A stretch of DNA of 64,000 nt from Paecilomyces variotii (taxonomy: Eukaryota), in assembly GCA_004022145.1 (NCBI GenBank), contig RCNU01000011.1; one strand, written 5' to 3'. Both the position numbers and the translations under genes were made by a program. The notes under the pieces were generated by a model that ran no database searches, was not told the origin of the DNA, and worked only from the letters and a program-made list of their open reading frames with translations. Below are positions 5,070 through 64,000 of the stretch, in pieces (the first letter of the stretch is position 1; each line of letters opens with the position of its first letter).

Positions 5070-7031
5070 ATGCCGTCAATCCTCAGCGATGCGGACAAGG
5101 AAACTGTGAAGAGAACGGTTCCGAAGCCGGCCAACAAGATTCTTGCAGTGGCCGTGGCACGGCTTTACGTCGCTTACCCGGATCATCATCGATGGACGTA
5201 CACGGGTCTCCAGGGCGCTGCGGTCCTGGCAAATGACTTGGTTGGGCACACCTTCTGGATCAAGTTGGTAGACATTTCGGTATGTGGTTGTCCAAACGCT
5301 GAGCAGACGACAAGGGACAAGATAGCTGACTGTTCTACTGCAGCCTGCCGGAAGAGGTGTCATTTGGGACCAAGAGATTTACGATGGCTTTCCTTATAAC
5401 CAAGATCGCACGTTCTTCCACTCATTTGAACTCGAAGAATGTCCGGCCGGCTTATCGTTCGCCGATGAAAAGGAGGCCAAGACCTTCATGAAGAAGATGC
5501 ATGAACGGGAGAAGAATGCTAGCAAGGAAACGAAACAGACGCCGTTTGCCTCAACCCGGGGACAGGGACCTGCTCCTGTTGCCAATGGGAAGGGTCCTAG
5601 TCGGTCATTGTTCGGGACCCTGATTCATGGTCATCATGGCCATAAATCACCAACGACACCGACAGCACCGACCGCTCCGCCAGTTGCAGCCCCTGCGCCT
5701 ACTCCTAGCCCACCGCGCAAAGCCTCTCCTCTCGATACCGTAGACCCATCGTGGAAGGGTCTGCTTGATGAGCTGTTGGCAATGGGCATCACGGAAGATC
5801 AGATCGCGGAGAACTCTGACTTTATTAAGGCTTATATTGAACAGAAGCAAGGTGCAGAGGCCGCGAGCGTCACGGAGGACCAGCGGAAAGGCAGAGCTCC
5901 TCCTCCGCCACCACCATCGGCGCCTCCAACTCCTAAGGTGACTACCATCAGCCCTCAACATACCGGAAGCAGTGGCAGCCGCCGTGGTGCTCCTCCACCT
6001 CCTCCGCCCTCGCGGAGAGCACGCACAGAGGTACAGGAAGAGCCTGCTGCTACACCTCCAGAACCGTCTCCCCAGAGGCCGAAATTCCGAGCTCCTCCTC
6101 CGATTGCGGATGCAGGAAAGTTTGCTCATACTGCACCAGCTCCTCCTGCGCGCCAACGAGCTGCATCAGGATCGAACCTTGGTCCTCCGCCTCCTCCAAG
6201 ACCACCCAAAGCACCTGATGATGGCACTCCACCTAGATTCGGGGTTGCGCCCCCTTTCCAAGGAGAAAGGAAGGTATCCGCTCCACCAGCTCCCCCGAGT
6301 CGCAGCCCTGCACCAGCAGCTCCTCCTCCACCTCCGCCGCGCGCAGCAAGTCCAGCAGTACCGCCTCAACTTCCCCCCAAGGTTCCTCATGGAGGCGTCC
6401 CATCTGCCATGCCCCCTCCTCCACCGGCCAGGAGTCCGGTCTCACCACCTCCACCTCCGCCTCCTGCTTCCAGGCCTGTTCCTCCTCCTCCAGCGGCATC
6501 GAGTGCTCCGCCTCCGCCTCCACCTCCACCACCCCCAGCTCCGGCCAGTTCTGGCCCTCCTCCGCCGCCCCCGCCCCCTCCTCCTCCAGCAGCTGGACCT
6601 GCTGCACCCCCTCCACCACCTCCTCCGCCAGCCAGTTCTGGGCCCCCTCCGCCTCCGCCGCCACCACCTTCAGGCGCAGCACCAAGTGCTGCTCCGCCGC
6701 TGCCTAAGCCTACAGGCGGCAGAGATGAGCTGCTGGCTGCTATTAGAAACACTGGCGGCGCAGGAGCTGGAGGTCTGCGGAAAGTCAAAGATTCCGAGAA
6801 GAAGGATCGAAGTGGAGCTATGGTGCCAGGTGGTGCCAGCGAGAGTCCTGCAACGCCGTCTGGCGGTGGTGGCCCGTCAGGAGGACTGGCTGGTGCCTTG
6901 CAAGATGCGCTTGCAAAGAGGAAACAGAAAGTCAGCGGTAGCGGTATGTTTTTCTTTAATCCTTACGCCGACTCGAAAAGACGGCTAACAATAGTGCAGA
7001 TGACGAGAAGGAGGATGATGACGACTGGTAA
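5070..7031 (+). CDS. LAS17: WASP-family actin nucleation promoting factor (Las17/Wsp1)
   Basis: N-terminal WH1/EVH1 domain (AVARLYVAYP...WTYTGLQGA), long polyproline region, WH2 motif (GRDELLAAIR...LRKV), C helix (LAGALQDALAKRK) and a last exon DDEKEDDDDW*. Introns at ~5280-5344 and ~6944-6999. Confidence 0.95.
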
Positions 7032-15187: not shown

Positions 15188-15258
15188 GCATCATTGGTCT
15201 AGTGGTAGAATTCGTCGTTGCCATCGACGAGGCCCGTGTTCGATTCACGGATGATGCA
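15188..15258 (+). tRNA. tRNA-Gly (anticodon GCC), intronless
   Basis: GCATCAT/ATGATGC acceptor stem, TGGTCTAGTGG A box, CGTCG-TTGCCAT-CGACG anticodon arm, CCGTG-TTCGATT-CACGG T arm; T-runs downstream. Confidence 0.97.
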
Positions 15259-26854: not shown

Positions 26855-27802
26855 GACAGAAGTTTCCCTCTTCCTCTCTGCCGCTCCTAAAGAGATAAGA
26901 AGTTGCAACGCGTTAGATTCGAACATGCAGACAAAGCATTCATTACTCCTCATTTTGCAAGGTGTCCATTCACGTCTCAAATCGAATGTCTAATAGAGCG
27001 ACGACATTATATCTCTTGCAATCCACGTCCCCATGGTGGATCGGTAGCATATCAAAGAGGATGTTCTGGATATTTTGTTATACTTCAGGCAGCGGCATAG
27101 TACAGGGTAACATCCCGAGAATACGTTCAATTCCCAATTTTGCTTTCGTGCATCATGATTCGAGATTTATCCTCGTGGAACAGCACTGCCGACACCTAGA
27201 GTGATATACCAGAGAAGAAGTAGCCAGAAACTACGTAGTTCATACAATGGGAACTGCAGTCTGGATCTTACTATACAATCTAATTTCCTTGCCCGGTTAT
27301 ATCTTTCCTGATAGCAGAGATATCCGCCAAGTACAGAAACGATAGCATTTGGTTATGGACAGCTGGATTTCCTTGCTATAGTGAATGATCACGAGATCCC
27401 AAAGTCCTCGGATCTCAAGTATCAATTTTTAATTTTATGACGGAAAACCCGTGTCTCGTAGGAATGGAGGTCGTCCGTACTGTTTAGGATTATTAAGTGG
27501 ACCCGGCCTGGCATCGTATATGGCTCCAGTCTGTTGTTGATATATCACTATGATCTGCATTTAACCGACTCTGTTTATCTAGTTCTTCTAGAATGGACCC
27601 TTTAGTTCCGGAAGCGACTTTTTAATCGTCAGGTCGCATGTAATGGAGAGTCCTAGACGTGATCCCGCAAGCTCTCGTGAGACCTCACAACTATACACAT
27701 AGCAAAGAGTCAACAAATAGACAACACCACCACCATCGCGATAGTAATAAACGAACTAAAAGGAAAGAGCAAAATAAAAATAAAAATAAAAATAAGTACC
27801 AC

Positions 27803-27995
27803 AAAAAAGCTCACACCCGCGAGCACTCATCCACAGGACGAGAGATGGAGGGTGTTACGAAAACCCCGCCTATGCTTTTGGCGGGCAGGGTTTTTCTTCG
27901 AAAATCCAAGGAGCCTCTCCAAGGTTCGAACAGGGAGCCTCCAGCTAGATGGGGTGGACTAGCTTTGTACCACTGCGCCATCTGGACTCCCTGAC
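27803..27995 (-). ncRNA. Candidate RNA polymerase III transcript (~185-190 nt) with a tRNA-type internal promoter, not a canonical tRNA
   Basis: A box TGGCGCAGTGG (27980-27970), B box GTTCGAACC (27931-27923), TATATA ~30 nt upstream (28019-28024), several hairpins, terminal GCTCGC-GGGT-GTGAGC stem-loop and TTTTTT (27808-27803). Confidence 0.65.
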
Positions 27996-28714
27996 TGATG
28001 AATGAGCCTTTGTTGTGGTATATATGTGGGGGTGGATGAATGGGATTCTTTGTTCTGACGTGGGTCTGGTTGGATACGGCTTTGTATGTAATATGGAATG
28101 ACCGGATTATTAGCTTTCGAGAGCCGGATTCACTTGTCTAGTATGATTATCCTCTAGTCCCTGATACCTATATATGTGGTGCTCCTAGGCACAGGACCGA
28201 GTAAGTAGCTTATAGAGTCGGACAACGTTTCTGGCATGTGAGGTCTGGTATATCCATCTGCTCACATAGAAGCTCTGCCCATGTATCAAATTCTGGCTTG
28301 GCAAGCTTGCATATATAGCTGATGAAAAAAGGAACTCGGCTTTGACTCACCCGTGAATCATCGGAGAGTGATAACTTACCATCAGGGCCGGATGCAACGT
28401 TAACTTATGCTCGATATCTACTATAGATATTAATATCCATTAGGCTTGACAAGAGGCTAATATGTTCGTTCTATGAAAATGGGACTGGTAGAAATGGAGG
28501 TCTCAGACTAGGGAAATCTTGCCCCAGAGATATCAGATGAGACGACACGAGTCCAAGAAAATCAAGGTCTAAAGGTAGAAGCAGGATAACGCTCTAACGA
28601 ACAGAATGGCCCATCGGGCAATTATGCTCCGAACCGCATTCGGGGAGAGATAAAAGAAAACTCATCACCTTCGTCACCTTGTCCTTCACGCCCTAGACTC
28701 AACAGTTCAAACCA

Positions 28715-30578
28715 TCACCCGGGCAATTTCTTTCCCAGCTTATCTTCGACAGCCCTTCTCAGATCTTCTCCTGTCGGCATTGTAACAACGCTTCCCCTCC
28801 TATTTCTGGCTTCTATTTCAGACCTGATTTCCTGCACAGCTTCGTCAATGTCACGAGCCGGATCATTTGGTAGTCCGAGGGTTGGCGCTCGAAGCGTCTC
28901 CTGGCTTGCAGTCCTCGGAATATGAGGCATGTTGCGCTTCTTCAATCGTTTCACCAGGATGGCTTTTGCTGGGCTTGCAAAGAAACCAATGATCGAGAAA
29001 ACGCCGATGATGCCGTAGAAATACACATGCGCCCAGACCCCAACAGATCCAGTGAAAGAGAGAATAATGAATGGGAGAACGACGAATGACATTGTGAGCT
29101 GCGTTGCAAACCAGGTCGCTGCATCGTAATAGCGCTTGTAAGGTGTCGGCTTGCTACCATCTGGAGTGAGGAAGAATGGCCGAACGTGACGACGGACATC
29201 TAGGGGACGGTGAGCAGGTCTACTTGACTAGTAAGAAGGTTTGCGAACTTACTCTTTGCCGCCATCTGCACAAACGAAGCGAGAATGAATGTCAGATAGT
29301 ATCCGGGATAGAAACCATGCCAGAAAGCGCTAGTCGCAAAGGTCGCTAAGCTGGCTCTGAAGCCGGGCTTCTTTCCTTTGGGAGTCACTCGTAGATAGAC
29401 GTAGTTTTTTAACCAGTGGTTTGTATTCTTGTTCCAGTTTCCGAGATAGGCGTATGTGTTTTGAGCCGTTTCAATGCCCCAGGGATTGACATTTTCTAGG
29501 CGATTCCAAAACACCTTTCCTGTCGTAGCGTCGAACCCATTATATCCCATACCAGATAGGATGCAGGCACCCTCCGTGAGTGACCAGACACCATAGTACT
29601 TCAGTCTCGTCGCGAAACCAAGCATATGCAGGATCCAAACACGTCGAGGGAAGGAGTACTTCATGTACTCTTCGCTTAGCACTGCATTTGGGAAGTAGAG
29701 TCTCCCGAGCTGCAAGAAGAGAAAGATCCACACAAGACCAATAAGTGCCTTCTTCGTTGCAGGAGTTCCACTTCGCGGTATCTTGCGCTTCTTTCGCGTA
29801 AGAGGTACCTTGGCAGGGTCTGTTCCCGGCGGTACATCAAACAAGGTTGTGGTGATCCACCGATGATAATCCACGTAGTCAAAAGCCGGGCCTGCGAAGA
29901 GGGAAGGGAAGAAGAGGATGTAACCGGCATAGTCGAGGAACCCTGGAAATTCTCTAATAGCAGCATATTTCTGTGCATCCGACAGGTCCTTCTGTGGCAA
30001 CCGGCCGTCATGAATATTCCAGCAGAACGCTGAAAGCTTCATAACCAGCACCATTTGTGCACCAGTAATATCGACAACAGAAGCATCATTTAGATTCTGG
30101 CGAGTTATATGGTTCAATGACATGTGGCCCATAAGAAAAATAAAGCCAATCCAAGGCATCAGAGAACCATCAATGTAATACGCGATGGCGTATGTTCCCA
30201 CCGCACTATATAGCAGCGTTCGTAGGCCATCCCACAGGTCGAACAACCCCACTAGGTAGAACAGAGAGACAGAAATAATGAAGACATTTTTCTTCCATGG
30301 TTGTGCATCTGGTAGTCTCTTGAGAATGCCGGCCAAAGGGTAGGATAGGAGGAACGATGCGATCAGTTTCACTACACAAAAAATCGGTCAGACTGGTTAT
30401 TTTCGTACGCGACACATAGTGGCTCCGACTTACATTCATCGACGGAGGCGCCTGTCAACTCCTCAAGGTAGTAGAAAGCTAAATTAGAGATAATTAGTAA
30501 TTGCTGGAGCTCGCATAATCGTCGTTCAAAAGCTGCTCAAGAGGGGTGAGACGCACGAGTATCGATGAAAGGCAACAT
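28715..30578 (-). CDS. ALE1: MBOAT-family lysophospholipid acyltransferase
   Basis: MLPFIDT start; DITGAQMVLVMKL, AGPAFDY, WNKNTNHWL and SAFWHGFYPGYYLTF (catalytic His); several introns. Confidence 0.93.
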
Positions 30579-39306: not shown

Positions 39307-42300
39307 TCAGACCTTCTCAGATCGATCTGACTTCCTGGTGGTAATTTTGGACACGGCTTTCTTGAGGCCATCGATCACCTTGCCAAGGAGGCCGAAGATG
39401 TAGCCAATACCGAACGACCAGCCGCGGACACGCACGGTATAAATGAAGAAGTACACCAGGATCCAGTTGATGATGCAGTAGCCGAGGACGATGCCGAAGC
39501 AGCGCCACTTGTCGCCGTCGTGGACATTCAGGGTGTGCATGTACTCGTCACCGTTGCGATAGGCACAGTAGCTGCAGTCAGAAGTGGCGTCCGGGTTGCT
39601 GAGATAGCCGGCACGGGCGATCTCAGATACGAAGCGACCGGCATATTGACTGCAGGTCTGGCCTGGAGGTGGGTTGAAGTGAGTGGCTTCCTGAGACGAG
39701 CAGACGACTGGGGTGCCTGGCAAAATACTGGACAGGACACCACGGAGCCACCACGTCATTGGATTGACGTAGTACATCCAGTACTTCCAGAATACTGGGT
39801 ACGCGCTGTAGGGACGGACAATACCGTTGAAGAGGTTGACCATGACGAAGAAGAAGGGGAGGACCTAGTGATATTGTTAGTATATTTCAGACGCGAAATT
39901 ACATGCAAGGATCACGGGATCGACTTACGTTAGAAATGACAGTAAAGGATGGTGCGAAGGCACAGATCCACTGTCCCCAACTTGCTTGGAACAGGAAGAA
40001 AAGCATCGTCATCAGGAAAACGTAACCGGCTGTGCTTGAGTCTGTTGGGAGACCGACTGGGTAGTACCACAGCAACCAGTACACTACACTTGTGACGATG
40101 GCGGCTGGAATTTCGCAGACAATGTTTGCAGTACAGAACGCGATCCATCCGTAGATACGGGACGGATATTCACGAGCCTCCCAGAGCGCACGGTTCATAT
40201 AGAACTTGGGGACGATACTGTTCATGGTAATCGGTGGGATCAGAATGACCAGGAAGGCCGAGAACATGCGATCCTGCATGCTGGAGATGCTGTTTCCGAG
40301 CATCCAGAAGGTAAATCCGTTGAAGATACCAACGATCACACTAACGAAGAGCTTTCCATAGTAATACGAGGGGTCTCTCCAGTACTGCAAGAAGAGTCTC
40401 TTGGTAAGCATGACAGTTTGCGTGGTGACAGGAGCAGCGTATTCGTATTGCTTGCCAGCCTCGGGCGCAGGAAGCTTGCTGCGCTCCTCTCGGATACGTT
40501 GGATCTCCGCCAGGACTTGACGGTTCTGCTCGGAGTTTCTCCATTCCTCGTTCCAGTCGACTGGTCGGCCATCTTTTCCCTTGCCTCCCTTTGCTGCAGT
40601 CTCAAGGATAAACTCGGCAACGTTCTTGGACGGCGGACAGACAAAGCCGCGTTCCGCAAAGTAGCTGATGACCGCTGAGCCATTCTTACCAACGGGGCCG
40701 AAGTAGAACGTGTTACCACCTGGGTTGAGAGCGAGGACCATGTCGAACTCTTGAATGAGCATCGAAGACGGCTGGTGGATGGTACACACGATAGCTTGGC
40801 CCGCTTGAGTCAACTTCTTCAAGAACCGCACGATCGAGAAAGCCGCTTGACTATCCAGACCACTAGTAGGCTCGTCGAGGAACAAGAGAAGATTTGGCTT
40901 AGCGGCCAGTTCAACTCCGATTGTGACTCTCTTTTTCTGTTCGACCCCGAGAGAGCTGATTAGGGCATCTTGGATGTCCCCAAGCTCCAAGAGCTCAATG
41001 ATCCTGTTCACGTAATCGATCTTCTCCTGGCGTGGGATATTTCTGTCTTGTCGCAGGATGGCAGAAAACTCCAGAGCTTCCCGGATCGTAGAAGTGCCAT
41101 CATGAAGATCCATCTGCTCACAGAAACCGGTTCCTCTCTGGAATTCCGGACCCAGGGGACGACCGTCAACGAGCATATCACCGGTTACCACTCCCACTTT
41201 CTGGCGTTGGGCAAGAGTGTTCAAGAGCGTTGTCTTTCCTGCTCCCGAGGCACCCATCAGAGCGATCATAATACCCGGCTTAGCGTAACCGTTAACGCCG
41301 TTCAGAATCTTCTTGGTTCCGTTTCCATACGGCACGGTGTACTCAACGTTGCTCCACGTGAAGATGCGATCACTAGAAGTAAGACTGTTGAGACCATTGT
41401 CGCCAGAAGAGGGTGAAGCATCGCGGGTGGAAGCTCCAACCTCTCCAGTTTTGACCTTCTCTTCATCACTGGTGCTTCCGTGCTTGGTCAACTGTTTGGC
41501 ACGCTTCGTCTTCTTGAACACCAATGCTCCACCGCCACCGCTCACAAACGAGAGTGTTTCCGTAGCGATGATAGTGACCAACAGGTACAGAACCGTCCAC
41601 GCAATCACCACGCCAAAGTTACGCCAGAGATGATGTCTCGTAAATTGGAACGAAGTCTCCAGGTAATTCCTTCCTGAGACGGTCGTGCTACCGAGCTGTG
41701 ACCCAGGCAGAGAGCAGCCTTGGTAGCGTGGATCGACACCAGGGCCCTGAGGCACGAGCATCGACGGAGAGCATGGCATCTCACGGTTCCAGAATTCATT
41801 TGTCAAGACTGCCTCGTAACTGTACGCAATTGGATTGATGTAGAACAGCCAGCCAAACCAGATCGAGTCTGCGATCAACGTTTGTTTCGGAATGACATAT
41901 CCGATGAAGATGACCAGGAGAGTCAGTGCAATTCCGCTGAAGCGAACCGCATCGTCGATGGTCGGGGACAGAGCTGCGAACATTCGGTACAATGACGTGA
42001 TACAGAAGGTGGTCGTGTACACGAATAGTGCGTAGATCCAGAATTTTGAGACATCAACATCTAGCCCTGCCATGAAGTACACAATGATCGTAAAGACTGC
42101 TACCATTGCGAAGATCATGGGAAAGTCGACCAGGACACGAGCCAATGAGACAGCCGAGGGGCGATAGAAGGCGTAGTCCTTATGTCTCTTGATAATAACT
42201 CGTCCTGATACCGCAGACATCAACTCGGTCAATTGCAACCAGCCAAGGAACAAGACCGAGAAGAAGAGTGTACCACCTCGGGAGAAGGCACCGCTGGTGT

Positions 42301-52045: not shown

Positions 52046-52972
52046 TGTTTGGCGTTTGTTCAGTTGAAACCTGGGGGGAGATAGCTGGACAAGGATACAA
52101 TATAATCACAACAAAGTTGACCCGCCACAGGGCAAGGTTTCTTGCGACGCGGGTACGCTATAGACGGCTTCTGATTAATCACCTCAAGTCACCCCGAAGA
52201 ATGAAAGTTAAAAAGGAGGGGACAATAATAGGATGTCACTGGCGTAAGGAATCGTGTTGCCAGTTGACTTTTGGTCTCTTGATTTTCTTCCCCCCGTTAA
52301 CATGCGGACATAGATGGATTTTAAAAGTCGGGGTAGCACGATTGGGACGCGTGTGATGGGAGCTCGAGAGAAGGGCGGGGGGTCCTCGTCCACGGAGTTC
52401 AGAAGGATGCGCTCGCGACGACGTAAATGATTGTGTGGAGGATTGATGGTACCTCCGTGACAGACTACGAGGAACGCTGGCTAGAGGATGGGAGCCCGAG
52501 TTTGACGAGAAGCACGGATCTGGTCGTCGACGTTGTCCAGCCGTGGTCGATAGGGGTCCAGAGAGCGCTCAATCTGAAAGGACAGACTGAGAGGGATTGG
52601 TGTCGTTCAGTGTTGGTTCGACGTTGGGGGGGAGTTAGGGAGAGAGCTGGTCGTCCCACGGGATCCCGGCCGATAACGGTACAGCGTAAGTACGGGCGTG
52701 CAGATGAGTAGGCAGCGTTGCGGGCAATACAACGGTGGTTTGGAATCAGGACGAGAATGACGCTGGTGGCCGAGTGGATTGATTTGTATGTTGCTTGGTT
52801 CAAACTCAAGCTAATAATTCTCGTACCACGAACCCCCCGAGGTTAATGCTGAAGCTCTTTTCTTACCGGCGGGGTGCTTTGGATGGGGCCGGTGCTTTGG
52901 GGGGGAGAGGGGATCCGCTAACTAAGCGGGATTGCACGCTTCTCTCTTCTGGAGGGAGGGAACCAGGGGACG

Positions 52973-53110
52973 GAGAGAGGGAGAGAGAGAGAGAGAGAGA
53001 GAGAAGAGAGAGAAGAGAGAGACACAGAGAGTGAAAGAAAGAAGGAAGGAAGGAAAGGAAAGGAAAAAGAAGAAGAAGAAGAGGAAGAAAGAGAAGAAGG
53101 GGAAAGGGAA
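52973..53110 (+). repeat. (GA)n / (GAA)n purine-rich microsatellite
   Basis: Directly visible GAGAGA and AAGAAG runs. Confidence 0.9.
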
Positions 53111-53898
53111 TAATGTAAAGAAAAACAGATGAAGAGCAAAAGCAGCAGAGGAAGCTAGAGAGTCAGCCACGAATCCAGCAGATCGGGAGATAGGGTGACG
53201 GAGTAGGTACAGTAGTTAGTATGGTATGGCGAGGAATGGGTTTGTCTTTTTCAAGATCGGGGGGGGCAGGGCTATGAATGGGAGGCGCGAAGACGAGAGA
53301 AGAGAGAGGCGGGCAGGGAAGAACAGCCGGTGCGGGACCACGAAAAGGACGGGCGGGTGGAGAGGCCAGGCGCGACTAGTGGAGCCGGCTGGACGAAGGC
53401 CGAGATGGCATCGATTCAATTTCGGGCGTTCTGGGAGAGAGAGAGGGAGGGCCTCAAGTCTGGAACGGGTGGAAACCGGAGGAGGAGGAGCGGAGAGGAA
53501 AGGGAAGGGGAAGGGGAAGGATGTATGGTATGGTATGGTATAGGAAAGGAGGGGAGGGGAGGTACCTAGTAATAGGTAGGTAGGTAGGTAGGAGGAAGAA
53601 GAACAAGAAGAAGAACAAGAGTAAAACTAGGAAATCATGGATGACTGCATGGATGTGCAGCAATGATTCCCGAGAAAGAGAGAAGAATAATAAGAGATTG
53701 GACGGGAGAAATTCGAAGACTAACTACTACTGCTGGATGCAATCATAGTGCTCTAGACGCAATTAGTTAATAGCTGGGAGTTAATTCACTTGTAACTTGG
53801 TAACTGGGTTATCTAACTAATTTAATAGTTAATGAGCAGCAATAATACTCACTCATATAACTAGGTAGCTATCCACAATAATAACTAGTTCCCTAACA

Positions 53899-54034
53899 GT
53901 AGTAGTAGTAGTGGTGGTAGTGGTAGTGGTAGTAGTACTGTAAGATAACGACTGCTTAACCAGTGTATCACTAGACTAGGCAAACAGACAGACAGACAGA
54001 TAGACAGATAGACAGATAGACAGACAGACAGACA
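53899..54034 (+). repeat. (TAG/TGG)n and (AGAC/AGAT)n microsatellites
   Basis: Directly visible at ~53899-53936 and ~53985-54034. Confidence 0.9.
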
Positions 54035-54253
54035 GGACTCAGTATGGTAGTCTTTGGTCCTCGAGTAATATATCGGAGACGGACACGTTCAGATCTCTCG
54101 ACGGATACAGCAATTAACTAACTGTTGCAATCGTGAGGGGGAAGAATGCGCACGGGGACACTGGGGGGGTGGACAGAGAGCAGATCCCAGAGAGGCCCGC
54201 GAGCTGGTGGGCCGCAGTGGGCTGAGCAAGTCTTGGGCCAGTAGTAAAACGAT

Positions 54254-54588
54254 CTCTCTCTCTGTCTGTCTGTCTGTCTGTCTGCCCGCGCGGTTGGAGA
54301 GCTACTTAGGACCTATCTAGAGTAACTACGGAGTACTATCTACCGTATGGATATGACAGAAACGTCGAGCATACCATACTGTACTGATAATTTACTATTA
54401 GCTGAGAGCCAATTCCAACAACAGTCGTATAGCCATCTCCCTTCTTTTTTTGGGGGGGTTCTCTGGGGGTTCTCTTGGGGGGCGTTCCTTTTCTCCAACA
54501 GTCACCAATGACTCTAGTCGTTACTACTCTTAAGAAGGGGGGGGGCAGCTGAACTATCCCGCCGTTAGTCGAGGGGGGCCTTTTTCTG

Positions 54589-54620
<32 letters not shown>

Positions 54621-54632
54621 TCTGTCTGTCTG
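54254..54632 (+). repeat. (CT)n and (TCTG)n microsatellites
   Basis: Directly visible at ~54254-54284 and ~54589-54632. Confidence 0.9.
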
Positions 54633-57600
54633 TTTCTCCTCACGCGCTAATGAGCGCCTCCTGGCCCGTGAGCCTTGAGGGGTCGCAGTGGAGACTCGTC
54701 AGCGCCGACAGCCCAACCACGGGTCTGCCCTGATGAAGACAGGATGATGTGCACTTGGCCCAAGCTGCCTGCTCGTTCTGCTCGAGTCGCGCCGTTCGTC
54801 CGTGAGAAACCCCCCGCGCTCAGCTGGGAGTCTACCTGGTGAAAAAGGCAGAGACACGGATCGACGGGTAATGAAAAGAAAGAAAAGAAAAGAAAAAAAT
54901 ACTACAGCAGACAGCAGACAGGTAACAGAAAGAAAAAGACGTTCAAACAATACAAGACAAGACAGTACCCTGAAACAACCAGGGCCACCAGACAACCCCT
55001 GCGGCTGGAGAAGCTGCAGTGCATCAGCTTAGAGGCAACCAGAGCTGATCTCCCCAAGGTGGTCGCTGAGAGGAGGATCTGAAGATCCACGAGCGAGATG
55101 TCTCTTAGCTGGGGGCGTTAGGGCGGACGGGCTCTTTCTCGACGAACGGGGACACTCAAAGCGATCGCGATCATTGGCAAACATGGAAATCCGTTCGGGC
55201 TGCTGGGCACCACTCCGGGCGGTCCACCACCTCGACTCACGATGATCAGACGGCTTCGTCGGCATCAGAATGCGTCTCTGCGTCTCTCCAACAGCACGAA
55301 AACGAGGATCCGGACGGGGCTGGCCATTCTGCCCACGACTAGAACCAGGGACACCTGCGTTATGATGTGATTCGATTCCGATGGCCCTGATCAGTAGTCC
55401 GTTACTTACTTAGACTTATCGACAGCCCCCGACCAAAATCCCGCGCGCTTCCGCCGATGATGCGTGTTTCCAGGGAAATTGAGATTCCCCACCAACGCCG
55501 GCTTGATCCAGCGTCCCCAGAAGCCCATCGCACTGTCCTCTGCGAAACGCATGTCCGGGCTGGCAGACGATGGGGAACAAGCAGGTATGTATTGATTATG
55601 GGCGTTCCTGTTTGGTGTTTGTTTTGATCTCTATCTATCTTCAACGTTGCGCAAGGTTAGATTTGGCTTGCACGAGAGTTTTCGGTAGCTTCTCCAGTTC
55701 TCCAGGGGCCCCGGTTTCTTGAGCTTAGATTGAATTCGTTGCGAAACCTTCGCGGGAGATCCCCAGCAGATCCAGAACGCACGTTAATATAATGACGACT
55801 ATACCGGTCCAGCAATGGCGCGCCTGCAGCCGTTTCATTCTGCTTCTCATCTGATGGCCCGTAGACATCCGGAAAGAGAGGTCCAGACAAGGTCAGACAG
55901 GATCAGACAGCCCAGCGTAAATTGTCCGACAGCAGAGCATCGCGCGGTCATCCCGGTGCTGATTACTAGCAGGTGGCGCAGAGGACTTTTAGGTAGAGGC
56001 GTAGGTTTGGCGCGTGCTTGTTGGAACTCAATTGAAAGCACGGTCCCAATTGAAAAGGTTATCGGCAAAGGAACAACAGCAAGCGTGAACCTTGAAGCCA
56101 ACAAGCAGTGTTCTTATAGAAACCCTCCATGTCCATCAATGTTTCAGGGCAGATCGGAGTCAGTAGGACCTAGTCGGGAATCATCTTCTGCCATCCTTTC
56201 TGGGGGATGGACGGCCATCAGTAATACGATCAATTCCTCCTACAGCCTCGAATCCCGGCCTGAACCGTGGTTTCTGATTAATGAGACAGTGCTTTCGGCG
56301 TCGGGCGGTGCTGCGGTCAATAATGAGACTAGGCCTACTTCACATCCGACATCGAAGAATACGTCGGGCAACTTCCATCGGGTAGGTAGCAGGCAAGTGT
56401 TGCGAGCGACAGGTCGAAAGCACTCACAGGTAAATTCGTGTATGATCACGGATCCTATTTCTTACTGAATATCAAGGTCCAAATCGTCTCTATCGGCCGG
56501 CAGACAAGTCACGTTCGGAATCTCTGAGGGATGGAGAGGTCAGTGGCTGAAGAACGGTGCACTGTTCAGTTCTCAGGCGGCCAATTCGCACAGCTGCCAT
56601 CAACTTCATCTCTGGTAGACTACTTACTGGAGCTGCGCTCGGATAGCTTCGCGTCCTGACGGGCTGGGAGGAGAGAATGAGATCCGCTCCTCGTAACTAG
56701 AGCATCTCCTAAATCAAAGCTACGACTAGTGCAACCGCATCTGTGTGGCTGGAATCGCCCTGGACTCAAGAAGAGCTCTCCACTGGCCATCGTGCTTGGG
56801 AGAACGCCTCGTACCACAGGGCTGGGCTGAGAGATCCGGTCCGATCGGTGAGGCCATTAACATGCGCGAGAGCACGAGGGACATTGATACGAAGTAGGAG
56901 ATGCACCGTTTACCTAGTGGCGATATGATAGTCACAGGCATGCGAGCATTAGGTCGAGGCTCGCAAACACATGCAGATTACTGGTCAACCGCAGTTGCAT
57001 CAACACTGCCGGTAGTGATGATGATAATAATACCATAATGGTGCCTTTTTTTTTCTCGGTCCCCCCTCACTACTAATCATACTACTACTGTATTCAGCCG
57101 CCGATGTACGGAGTTGTAAACGCGAAAAAAATGTGTGGCAACATCATCAATCGAACTCGACTTTTTTTTTCCGGCTGAAATCTGCTGCCACAGACCACTC
57201 TCCAGTCGGCAAGTGGAGGCAAACTATCGAGCAGCAGGAATAGGATAATAATAATCCTGTAGAATCAAAAAAAAAAATGACAGGACGCATTTCTGACCCG
57301 GCCGTAGGGAAACAGAGACAACCTCGTACTCGGCTAGGCGAACGGCCAAGCCAAGCGATTACATTTGCGCCACGACGATATTATTTATCCCGCTGATCCT
57401 ATTACGGCCTTTTTTTTCCCCTCATACCTATCATGCACCAGCCGCGCAGGACGGTCGATTAATTAATTAATTGGGGTTGGAGCCGGAGCTTGCTCATACC
57501 TATCTACTACTACTTAGACACTAGTGCAGGCTTTTTTTCTCCGCTTCTGCTTCGGACGGCCACGGAGCAGGTAAAGTACACAGAACGCCGTTCATCCATC

Positions 57601-63765: not shown

Positions 63766-63884
63766 ACATACGACCATAGGGTGTGGAAAACAGGGCTTCC
63801 CGTCCGCTCAGCCGTACTTAAGCCACACGCCGGCAGGTTAGTAGTTGGGTGGGTGACCACCAGCGAATCCCTGCTGTTGTATGT
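63766..63884 (+). rRNA. Dispersed 5S rRNA gene
   Basis: 119 nt ACATACGACCATAGGGTGTGGAAAACAGGGCTTCCCGTCCGCTCAGCC...GCGAATCCCTGCTGTTGTATGT with complementary ends, T-run terminator and TATA-like element ~25 nt upstream. Confidence 0.97.
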
Positions 63885-64000
63885 TTTTGTCTTTTTTTTG
63901 GCCTGATATTTGAAGACGTTTATTGCTACGAATCGGGAATCGGTCCTAATAATATAGCTCAAATGGCAAACAGGAAGTAAACCTTGCTAGTCATGGTCCT

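Follow-up and report, generated by a model that had tools for sequence, protein, structure and literature searches.

We describe here an element on the minus strand of a 64-kb stretch of the Paecilomyces variotii genome (contig RCNU01000011.1), at positions 27803-27991, that has the layout of a type-2 RNA polymerase III (Pol III) gene. All coordinates are those of the whole 64-kb stretch, which we call the window. We tentatively read the element as a constrained, promoter-complete member of a low-copy Pol III family resembling short interspersed nuclear elements (SINEs), of the same kind as the AfuSINE2 elements of Aspergillus. Its promoter and terminator motifs are kept at an orthologous locus, L001, which is far better conserved in the element than in its flanks, and comparison with contigs of four public sequencing runs (X1, X4, X5 and X6) shows dispersed related copies. 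The element could well be the member of a dispersed, low-copy family that is best preserved and has kept its synteny, a view that we also hold with some reserve. Its low divergence points to constraint on this copy, which may have been domesticated; the family would have spread by retroposition, and any cellular role is putative.

The features that define the element, read on the minus strand, are as follows.

27803-27991, minus strand: predicted primary transcript (~185-189 nt) that begins in the G run 27991-27989 and ends in T6, placed by sequence, fold and the homology limit of one related contig (X1 record 8)
28019-28025, minus strand: TATA-like element ATATATA, at -34 to -28 when counted from G27991 as +1; kept in L001
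27970-27980, minus strand: A box TGGCGCAGTGG, an exact match to TRGCNNAGYGG; the sole L001 substitution (27976) falls at an N position
27923-27931, minus strand: B-box core GTTCGAACC, identical in L001 and seen by eye in two diverged copies, in their aligned portions or loose ends
27803-27808, minus strand: T6, the presumed Pol III terminator, kept in L001 and followed by three T5 runs at 27790-27767

The gap between the A box and the B box is 38 nt; the optimum spacing of these boxes is 30-60 nt. Taken singly, the A-box pattern TRGCNNAGYGG matches 5 times in the window compared to 1.53 expected, and the B-box pattern GTTCGANNC 13 times compared to 7.6 expected. Pairs of the two on the same strand, 25-55 nt apart, occur twice, where shuffled sequence predicts 0.01 across the 128 kb of strand. 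The other pair (40895-40947, plus strand) lies inside an ABC-transporter coding region, with a T5 run between its boxes and no TATA element; it is a chance look-alike, a negative control for Pol III gene calls made on motifs only, and it shows that chance pairs do occur. The initial annotation of this locus had called both boxes perfect. This is right for the A box; the B box agrees with the 11-nt consensus GGTTCGANNCC at 9 of 11 positions. From the B box, 114 nt lead to the 6-bp stem and T6 that close the element; the stem (27824-27809) is G+C-rich and, together with the T run, resembles a terminator. Inside the predicted transcript, T runs reach T4 at most (two T4 runs).

Two certain Pol III genes of the window provide local references: tRNA-Gly(GCC) at 15188-15258 and a dispersed 5S rRNA gene at 63766-63885 (84.6 bits), both on the plus strand. 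They too carry a TATA-like element each, around -38 to -31 and around -28 to -23, and have T5 and T8 runs downstream. Since their TATA-like elements lie at similar distances, the element follows the local Pol III promoter style. As in type-2 Pol III genes, A and B boxes at a workable spacing are combined with oligo-T downstream and no strong internal T run. Each part of the layout claimed in the initial annotation (TATA about 30 nt upstream, A box, B box, terminal hairpin and T6) was found in place, and it is very unlikely that such a gene layout assembled by chance.

If the element works as this layout predicts, TFIIIC would bind the internal A and B boxes (27980-27970 and 27931-27923) and would place TFIIIB on the TATA-like element (28025-28019). 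Pol III would then start at the G run near 27991 and stop in T6 (27808-27803), behind the G+C-rich stem, with the T5 runs as a back-up. The product, an RNA of ~185-189 nt, would fold as four consecutive hairpins and not as a tRNA.

The predicted 189-nt RNA of the minus strand has a minimum free energy (MFE) of -73.9 kcal/mol (z = -2.55; 2 of 200 shuffles fold as well), and its plus-strand counterpart reaches -68.1 kcal/mol (z = -2.08). The MFE fold reproduces the hairpins drawn earlier from the sequence and arranges the RNA as four hairpins in a row.

27932-27991, minus strand: hairpin 1, a long irregular stem that holds the A box; -22.9 kcal/mol, z = -1.63, 10 of 200 shuffles
27895-27931, minus strand: hairpin 2, whose 5' strand contains the B box; -11.7 kcal/mol, z = -1.52, 19 of 200 shuffles
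27856-27894, minus strand: hairpin 3, G+C-rich and found alone in other contexts; -17.7 kcal/mol, z = -3.14, 0 of 200 shuffles
27809-27855, minus strand: hairpin 4, including the terminal 6-bp stem 27824-27809; z = -2.57, 2 of 200 shuffles

In these predictions, the stability of hairpins 3 and 4 clearly exceeds that of shuffled sequences, and that of hairpins 1 and 2 does so only marginally.

The predicted RNA matches no known family that we searched. ARAGORN reports no tRNA at the element (its only call in the window is tRNA-Gly at 15188-15258), and the Rfam tRNA model has no match in 27600-28250 even at E<=10; the earlier observation that a tRNA cloverleaf cannot be formed is thereby borne out. 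At gathering thresholds, the 5S and tRNA-Gly genes are the sole Rfam 15 matches anywhere in the window. With permissive filters (E<=10) in 27600-28250, there is no tRNA, SRP, RNase P/MRP, U6, snoRNA or Afu_* match over the element, and what appears there is noise (PVT1_7, 14.6 bits against a gathering score of 80). The initial annotation had not recognized the RNA as U6, SRP, RNase P/MRP or 5S RNA; these searches agree and extend the negative to the Afu_* families. We also rejected a box C/D snoRNA, with no snoRNA model match and no C/D boxes by eye, and an H/ACA snoRNA: an ANANNA-like hexamer and an ACA do flank hairpin 3, but its 11-bp stem is continuous and has no pocket. Outside the element, a weak Afu_199-like C/D snoRNA candidate at 28094-28167 (plus strand) was likewise dismissed as probably not a snoRNA; it scores 16.4 bits against a gathering score of 45, and L001 has a 10-nt insertion and 7 substitutions there.

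A search of a protein collection with the two open reading frames (ORFs) that overlap the element returned 0 matches and no sign of coding. In literature on SINEs, Pol III, Aspergillus and Eurotiales we found no description of the element, and a 21-nt stretch of it was found in no paper. The main-text passages of Jochl 2008 and Gao 2021 that we compared name no comparable Pol III-type candidate; the supplements of these papers lie outside the comparison.

Relatives were sought in metagenome contigs with a pattern composed of the B box and the stems of hairpin 3, which returned 10 loci. L001, a contig of 1012 nt, aligns end to end with 28686-27676 at 94% identity; this identifies it as the orthologous locus, and it takes in the 3' part of the MBOAT gene region. 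L002-L010 were rejected as unrelated chance matches to the pattern, most of them G+C-rich; L002, L003 and L006 have in common an identical stretch of at least 240 nt around the chance match and represent one sequence from three samples, unrelated to the element. An exact 23-mer of the element found 0 loci in the metagenome contigs, and scans of genome contigs and viral contigs also found 0 loci. The differences between the window and L001 are distributed as follows.

27995-27803 (the element): 2 differences in 193 columns
104 nt upstream of the element: 2 differences in 104 columns
28419-28100 (intergenic): 33 differences in 320 columns
downstream of T6: 17 differences in 127 columns
27797-28103, no strand assigned: conserved island, the least-diverged 307-nt segment; 4 events compared to 29 in 350 nt of neighboring intergenic sequence (P = 0.005)

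Compared with the rest of the L001 alignment, the element gives a nominal Fisher p of 2e-4; overall, ~6-10% of columns differ in the flanks. The P value of the island comes from a stricter test, in which each indel counts as one event and the choice of position within the 1011-nt alignment is corrected for. In that test the least-diverged 193-nt segment of the alignment is the element itself (2 events). The conserved island ends 6 nt past T6 on one side and ~110 nt upstream of +1 on the other; a type-2 promoter is not known to need so much upstream sequence. Within the RNA, L001 has two changes, both benign: a G-to-A at the A-box N position and an internal T4 run shortened by one T. Each lies in an unpaired column of the consensus fold, and the motifs are spared. 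The syntenic copy that the initial annotation had proposed to look for is therefore present: L001 adjoins the same MBOAT (ALE1-like) gene, and the element is far better conserved there than its flanks.

Copies of the element also occur outside this locus. None was found elsewhere in the 64-kb window (blastn with word size 7, and a repeat search). A search of public runs with 27795-28000 gave 11 rows that hold part of it, 4 of them on record as RNA; the RNA-recorded rows are food-fermentation metatranscriptomes from two studies. We compared contigs of four runs (X1, X4, X5 and X6), from four studies, with 27300-28900; the counts that follow are among the 24 records listed and are at-least values. 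The element is overlapped by 16 of the 24 records, and in half of these (8/16) the contig piece matches only part of it, at ~87-96% identity, before passing into unlike sequence. A diverged version of 27847-27981 is also present in X1 record 2 and in the element part of X6 record 19.

X1 records 4, 5, 7 and 8; X5 record 17; X6 records 20, 21 and 22: the partial-match pieces
27958-28028: 5' module copy, in X5 and X6
27925-28025 and 27925-27991: two copies that run from the TATA or start region to the B box
one fuller copy: loose ends still homologous on both sides by eye, B box kept
27856/8-27894: copy of hairpin 3 only, in at least one context (X1 record 5, X6 record 21)

Grouped by common variants and by their loose ends, these pieces represent at least 5 related loci or fragments besides the locus itself, a lower bound on copy number. 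Four related sequences come from X6, a run with a single-organism label; a metatranscriptome may contain several species, and some of the X1 copies could be from relatives. The initial annotation had proposed an independent ncRNA. Given the several partial or diverged copies in public-run contigs, the claim of a unique new gene is weakened. It had also held that many dispersed copies with target-site duplications would make the element an ordinary SINE: the dispersed copies are there, and target-site duplications of at least 6 nt are not. The homology of X1 record 8 stops exactly at 27991, the predicted +1, as expected of a retroposed copy. The 5' limits of the copies (27991, 28025 and 28028) are informative but inconsistent.

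Some observations on the copies stand apart from this argument. The 5' module (TATA plus the first ~33 nt) sits within contigs of 1357 nt (X5) and 1907 nt (X6), with depths of 488 and 4725 compared to 17.6 and 816 for the MBOAT contigs; depth cannot rank genes here, and that a family fragment may sit in an abundant transcript is a lead only. At the locus itself there is a partial direct duplication of ~40 nt (28062-27978, minus strand), in which a CA(G/C)AACAAAG motif followed by CATTCATC occurs twice; it may explain the 16-19 nt that two other copies seem to lack. All 7 substitutions of the diverged copy 'C' (X6 record 19) agree with the fold; as we estimate the chance of such an outcome at ~8%, we did not use it.

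What the runs can say about transcription is bounded by their form: they consist of contigs, which carry no strand, ends or level, and RNA libraries may carry DNA. In X1, long exact contigs cover both sides of the locus, and one that spans several genes looks like DNA-type cover. We did not count as evidence of a discrete RNA a 155-nt contig of X5 (27805-27960) that stops inside T6, with the flanks 27300-27785 and 28056-28433 uncovered; it comes from one study. Nor did we count the lack of cover over 27948-28379 in X4, as uncovered parts prove nothing. The same-strand upstream neighbor of the element is the MBOAT (ALE1-like) gene (Pfam 2e-50), with its stop codon at 28715. Contigs of X4 with loose T runs end at 28567, 28538 and 28419 (minus strand), 150-300 nt past this stop codon, which suggests three alternative poly(A) sites of the MBOAT mRNA. 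With poly(A) sites at these positions, the element would lie outside the MBOAT mRNA.

The element is bracketed by an inverted repeat.

28008-28025, no strand assigned: 5' arm, 18 nt, 83% complementary
27792-27809, no strand assigned: 3' arm, which contains T6

TA dinucleotides abut the CCACAA/TTGTGG core of these arms, and the flanks of the tRNA-Gly and 5S genes have no comparable inverted repeat.

A number of results weigh against a constrained, SINE-like family member. Between 28070-27985 and 27815-27730 there is no direct repeat of at least 6 nt (repeats of 4-5 nt are below the resolution of this comparison), which argues against a classical SINE insertion here, though old duplications decay. 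No A-rich or LINE-like tail is seen, and T6 is followed by a (T5A)3 run. Descent of the head from a tRNA is not demonstrable; with no match to the tRNA model at E<=10, only the A and B boxes are tRNA-like. The arms of the inverted repeat match at 15 of 18 positions, which 1 of 500 composition-preserving shuffles of the flanks attains; a bracketing inverted repeat that holds T6 fits an element with terminal inverted repeats (TIRs) better than a SINE and makes a miniature inverted-repeat transposable element (MITE) inserted at TA a real rival. Two of the copies (X1 record 7 and X5 record 17/X6 record 22) share the TATA region up to 28025-28028 and, by inspection only, resume similarity further upstream after an indel of 16-19 nt; homology beyond the TATA is not predicted by retroposition. 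As to constraint, the position-corrected P for conservation of the 193-nt element is only 0.08. Covariation, the other comparative signal named in the initial annotation, is not seen between the window and L001, where 0 of 63 predicted pairs vary; together with the unpaired position of the changes, this speaks for constraint and provides no covariation evidence. Two contigs, X4 record 9 (27560-27895) and X6 record 19 (27407-27981), bridge T6, and if they are RNA, termination there is not clean. Finally, Pol III transcription and the ends of the RNA are what we infer from the DNA sequence. Dispersed copies, as expected of a tRNA-derived SINE of the AfuSINE2 type, and terminal inverted repeats, as expected of a TIR MITE, are both found.

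Could the element instead belong to a new, non-mobile family of cellular Pol III non-coding RNA (ncRNA) genes of fungi, copied by DNA duplication, whose ~190-nt four-hairpin RNA has a cellular role? In variants of this idea, the 5' promoter half may be a leader as in RPR1 and SNR52, or the transcript may be a Pol III precursor of microRNA-like RNAs (milRNAs). Such a gene would account for a conserved island that reaches ~110 nt upstream of +1, for an upstream TATA region common to copies, for the absence of a target-site duplication (at least 6 nt) and of an Rfam family, for L001 changes that spare all motifs and predicted pairs, and for a fold with a lower z on the minus strand (-2.55) than on the plus strand (-2.08). 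We nevertheless consider it unlikely. Many copies are fragments (the 5' module or hairpin 3 only) set in long contigs of unrelated sequence, as decaying repeats typically are, and +1 is the exact start of one copy. Covariation gives no support, the single relative found is 94% identical, and by eye one stem of a diverged copy has changed on both sides to a non-pair. We are similarly doubtful of a fuller version, in which an undescribed, lineage-restricted fungal Pol III RNA family carries a portable promoter-leader module (TATA plus A and B boxes) and the MBOAT-adjacent locus is under purifying selection for a cellular role. The MITE reading, in which a TIR-bounded element of ~220-234 bp inserted at TA, so that the TATA is the target site, T6 the complement of an A-rich terminal repeat, and the A and B boxes relics or coincidence, seems to us improbable. 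It draws on the inverted repeat (28025-28008/27809-27792), which the true Pol III genes of the window lack, on the TA dinucleotides beside the CCACAA...TTGTGG core, and on two copies whose homology stops at 28025-28028, the outer edge of the 5' arm. However, chance is very unlikely to place a correctly spaced A+B pair within ~230 bp (0.01 expected per 128 kb of strand), the limit of one copy is 27991 and not the arm, and by eye the upstream homology runs past the arm. A neutral MITE should also diverge like its flanks, which the element does not, and the 3' limits of the other copies are not visible in the contigs listed.

The conserved region might also be the promoter and 5' part of a non-coding transcript of RNA polymerase II (Pol II), with the TATA serving Pol II and the A and B boxes irrelevant. 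The contigs that bridge T6 (X4 record 9 and X6 record 19) run 240-400 nt further, and conservation extends upstream of the TATA, both as this would predict. There is, however, no long ORF downstream, conservation stops 6 nt past T6, the bridging contigs carry no strand and could stem from DNA carry-over, and the A box, B box and T6 layout and the dispersed copies are left unexplained; we regard a Pol II origin as quite improbable. We give the least credence, and very little, to a degenerate tRNA pseudogene or to motifs assembled by chance. A and B boxes do resemble D-loop and T-loop sequences, and a chance A+B pair exists in a coding region of the same window. Against this stand the absence of a tRNA-model match at E<=10 and the negative ARAGORN result, a body 114 nt longer than a tRNA, the conservation of the element and the B box kept in related copies.

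Beyond tRNA, 5S, U6, SRP and RNase P RNAs, hardly any of the Pol III transcriptome of filamentous fungi has, to our knowledge, been charted. If the element is transcribed as predicted, it would be either a well-preserved source gene of a fungal SINE-like family, of a class that is rare, low-copy and poorly defined, or a new constrained small RNA. A new cellular family, if true, would lengthen the list of fungal non-tRNA Pol III genes, which is now very short. A practical use is also conceivable, in which this compact, conserved cassette of TATA plus A and B boxes, coming from a mould of food fermentations, would drive guide-RNA expression as a Pol III promoter. If the element is only a decaying repeat, it is ordinary.

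Elsewhere in the window, we noted a proline-rich coding-type repeat at 6154-6668, with 11 copies of a ~53-nt CCN-rich unit, and long GA/CT and GACA/TCTG microsatellites that form inverted pairs at 52964-54650.

Several known systems bear comparison with the element. Fungal MITEs that insert at TA include mimp and Vader. Like these, the element is short, bracketed by an inverted repeat and abutted by TA; unlike them, it has short, imperfect arms (15/18), copies whose 5' limits differ and a full Pol III promoter layout, and it shows constraint. In the yeast RPR1 and SNR52 genes, the A and B boxes lie in a 5' portion of the transcript that is not a tRNA; a structured RNA unrelated to it comes next, and then oligo-T. 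The element likewise has its boxes in the 5' part, a structured remainder and oligo-T, but its 3' half matches no RNase P, MRP or snoRNA model.

In Neurospora crassa, Pol III-dependent milRNA loci are described in the passages of PMC3547838 compared here. By analogy with that description, a fungal Pol III transcript with hairpins could feed the production of small RNAs; in the element, hairpin 1 is only marginally above shuffles. The rodent 4.5SH and 4.5SI RNA genes, as presented in the parts of PMC10137851 that we drew on, are multi-copy small Pol III genes that are SINE-related and restricted in lineage; besides having internal A and B boxes, they need a TATA-like box near -30 for their transcription (PMC10137851). 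The element resembles this account of them in its small Pol III layout, with A and B boxes and a TATA near -30. They belong to another kingdom and have no sequence relation to the element, and their function and ends, in contrast to its own, were set by experiment.

The closest parallel is AfuSINE2 of Aspergillus fumigatus, which we compared by description only, from the passages of one paper that deal with it. There, AfuSINE2 elements are tRNA-related and SINE-like, 140-493 bp long, with degenerate A and B boxes; their heads form no cloverleaf, a tRNA-unrelated body extends up to an oligo-T, and copy number is very low (PMC5063351). Some are weakly transcribed, and they were defined with target-site duplications of 4-14 bp (PMC5063351). 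Set against that description, the element differs in having no target-site duplication of at least 6 nt, which counts against our reading, and in its near-consensus boxes; the upstream TATA region is common to some of its copies, and the element lies between the arms of an inverted repeat. In its size, its A and B boxes, its non-cloverleaf 5' part, the tRNA-unrelated body before the oligo-T and its low copy number, the element is like AfuSINE2 as described there.

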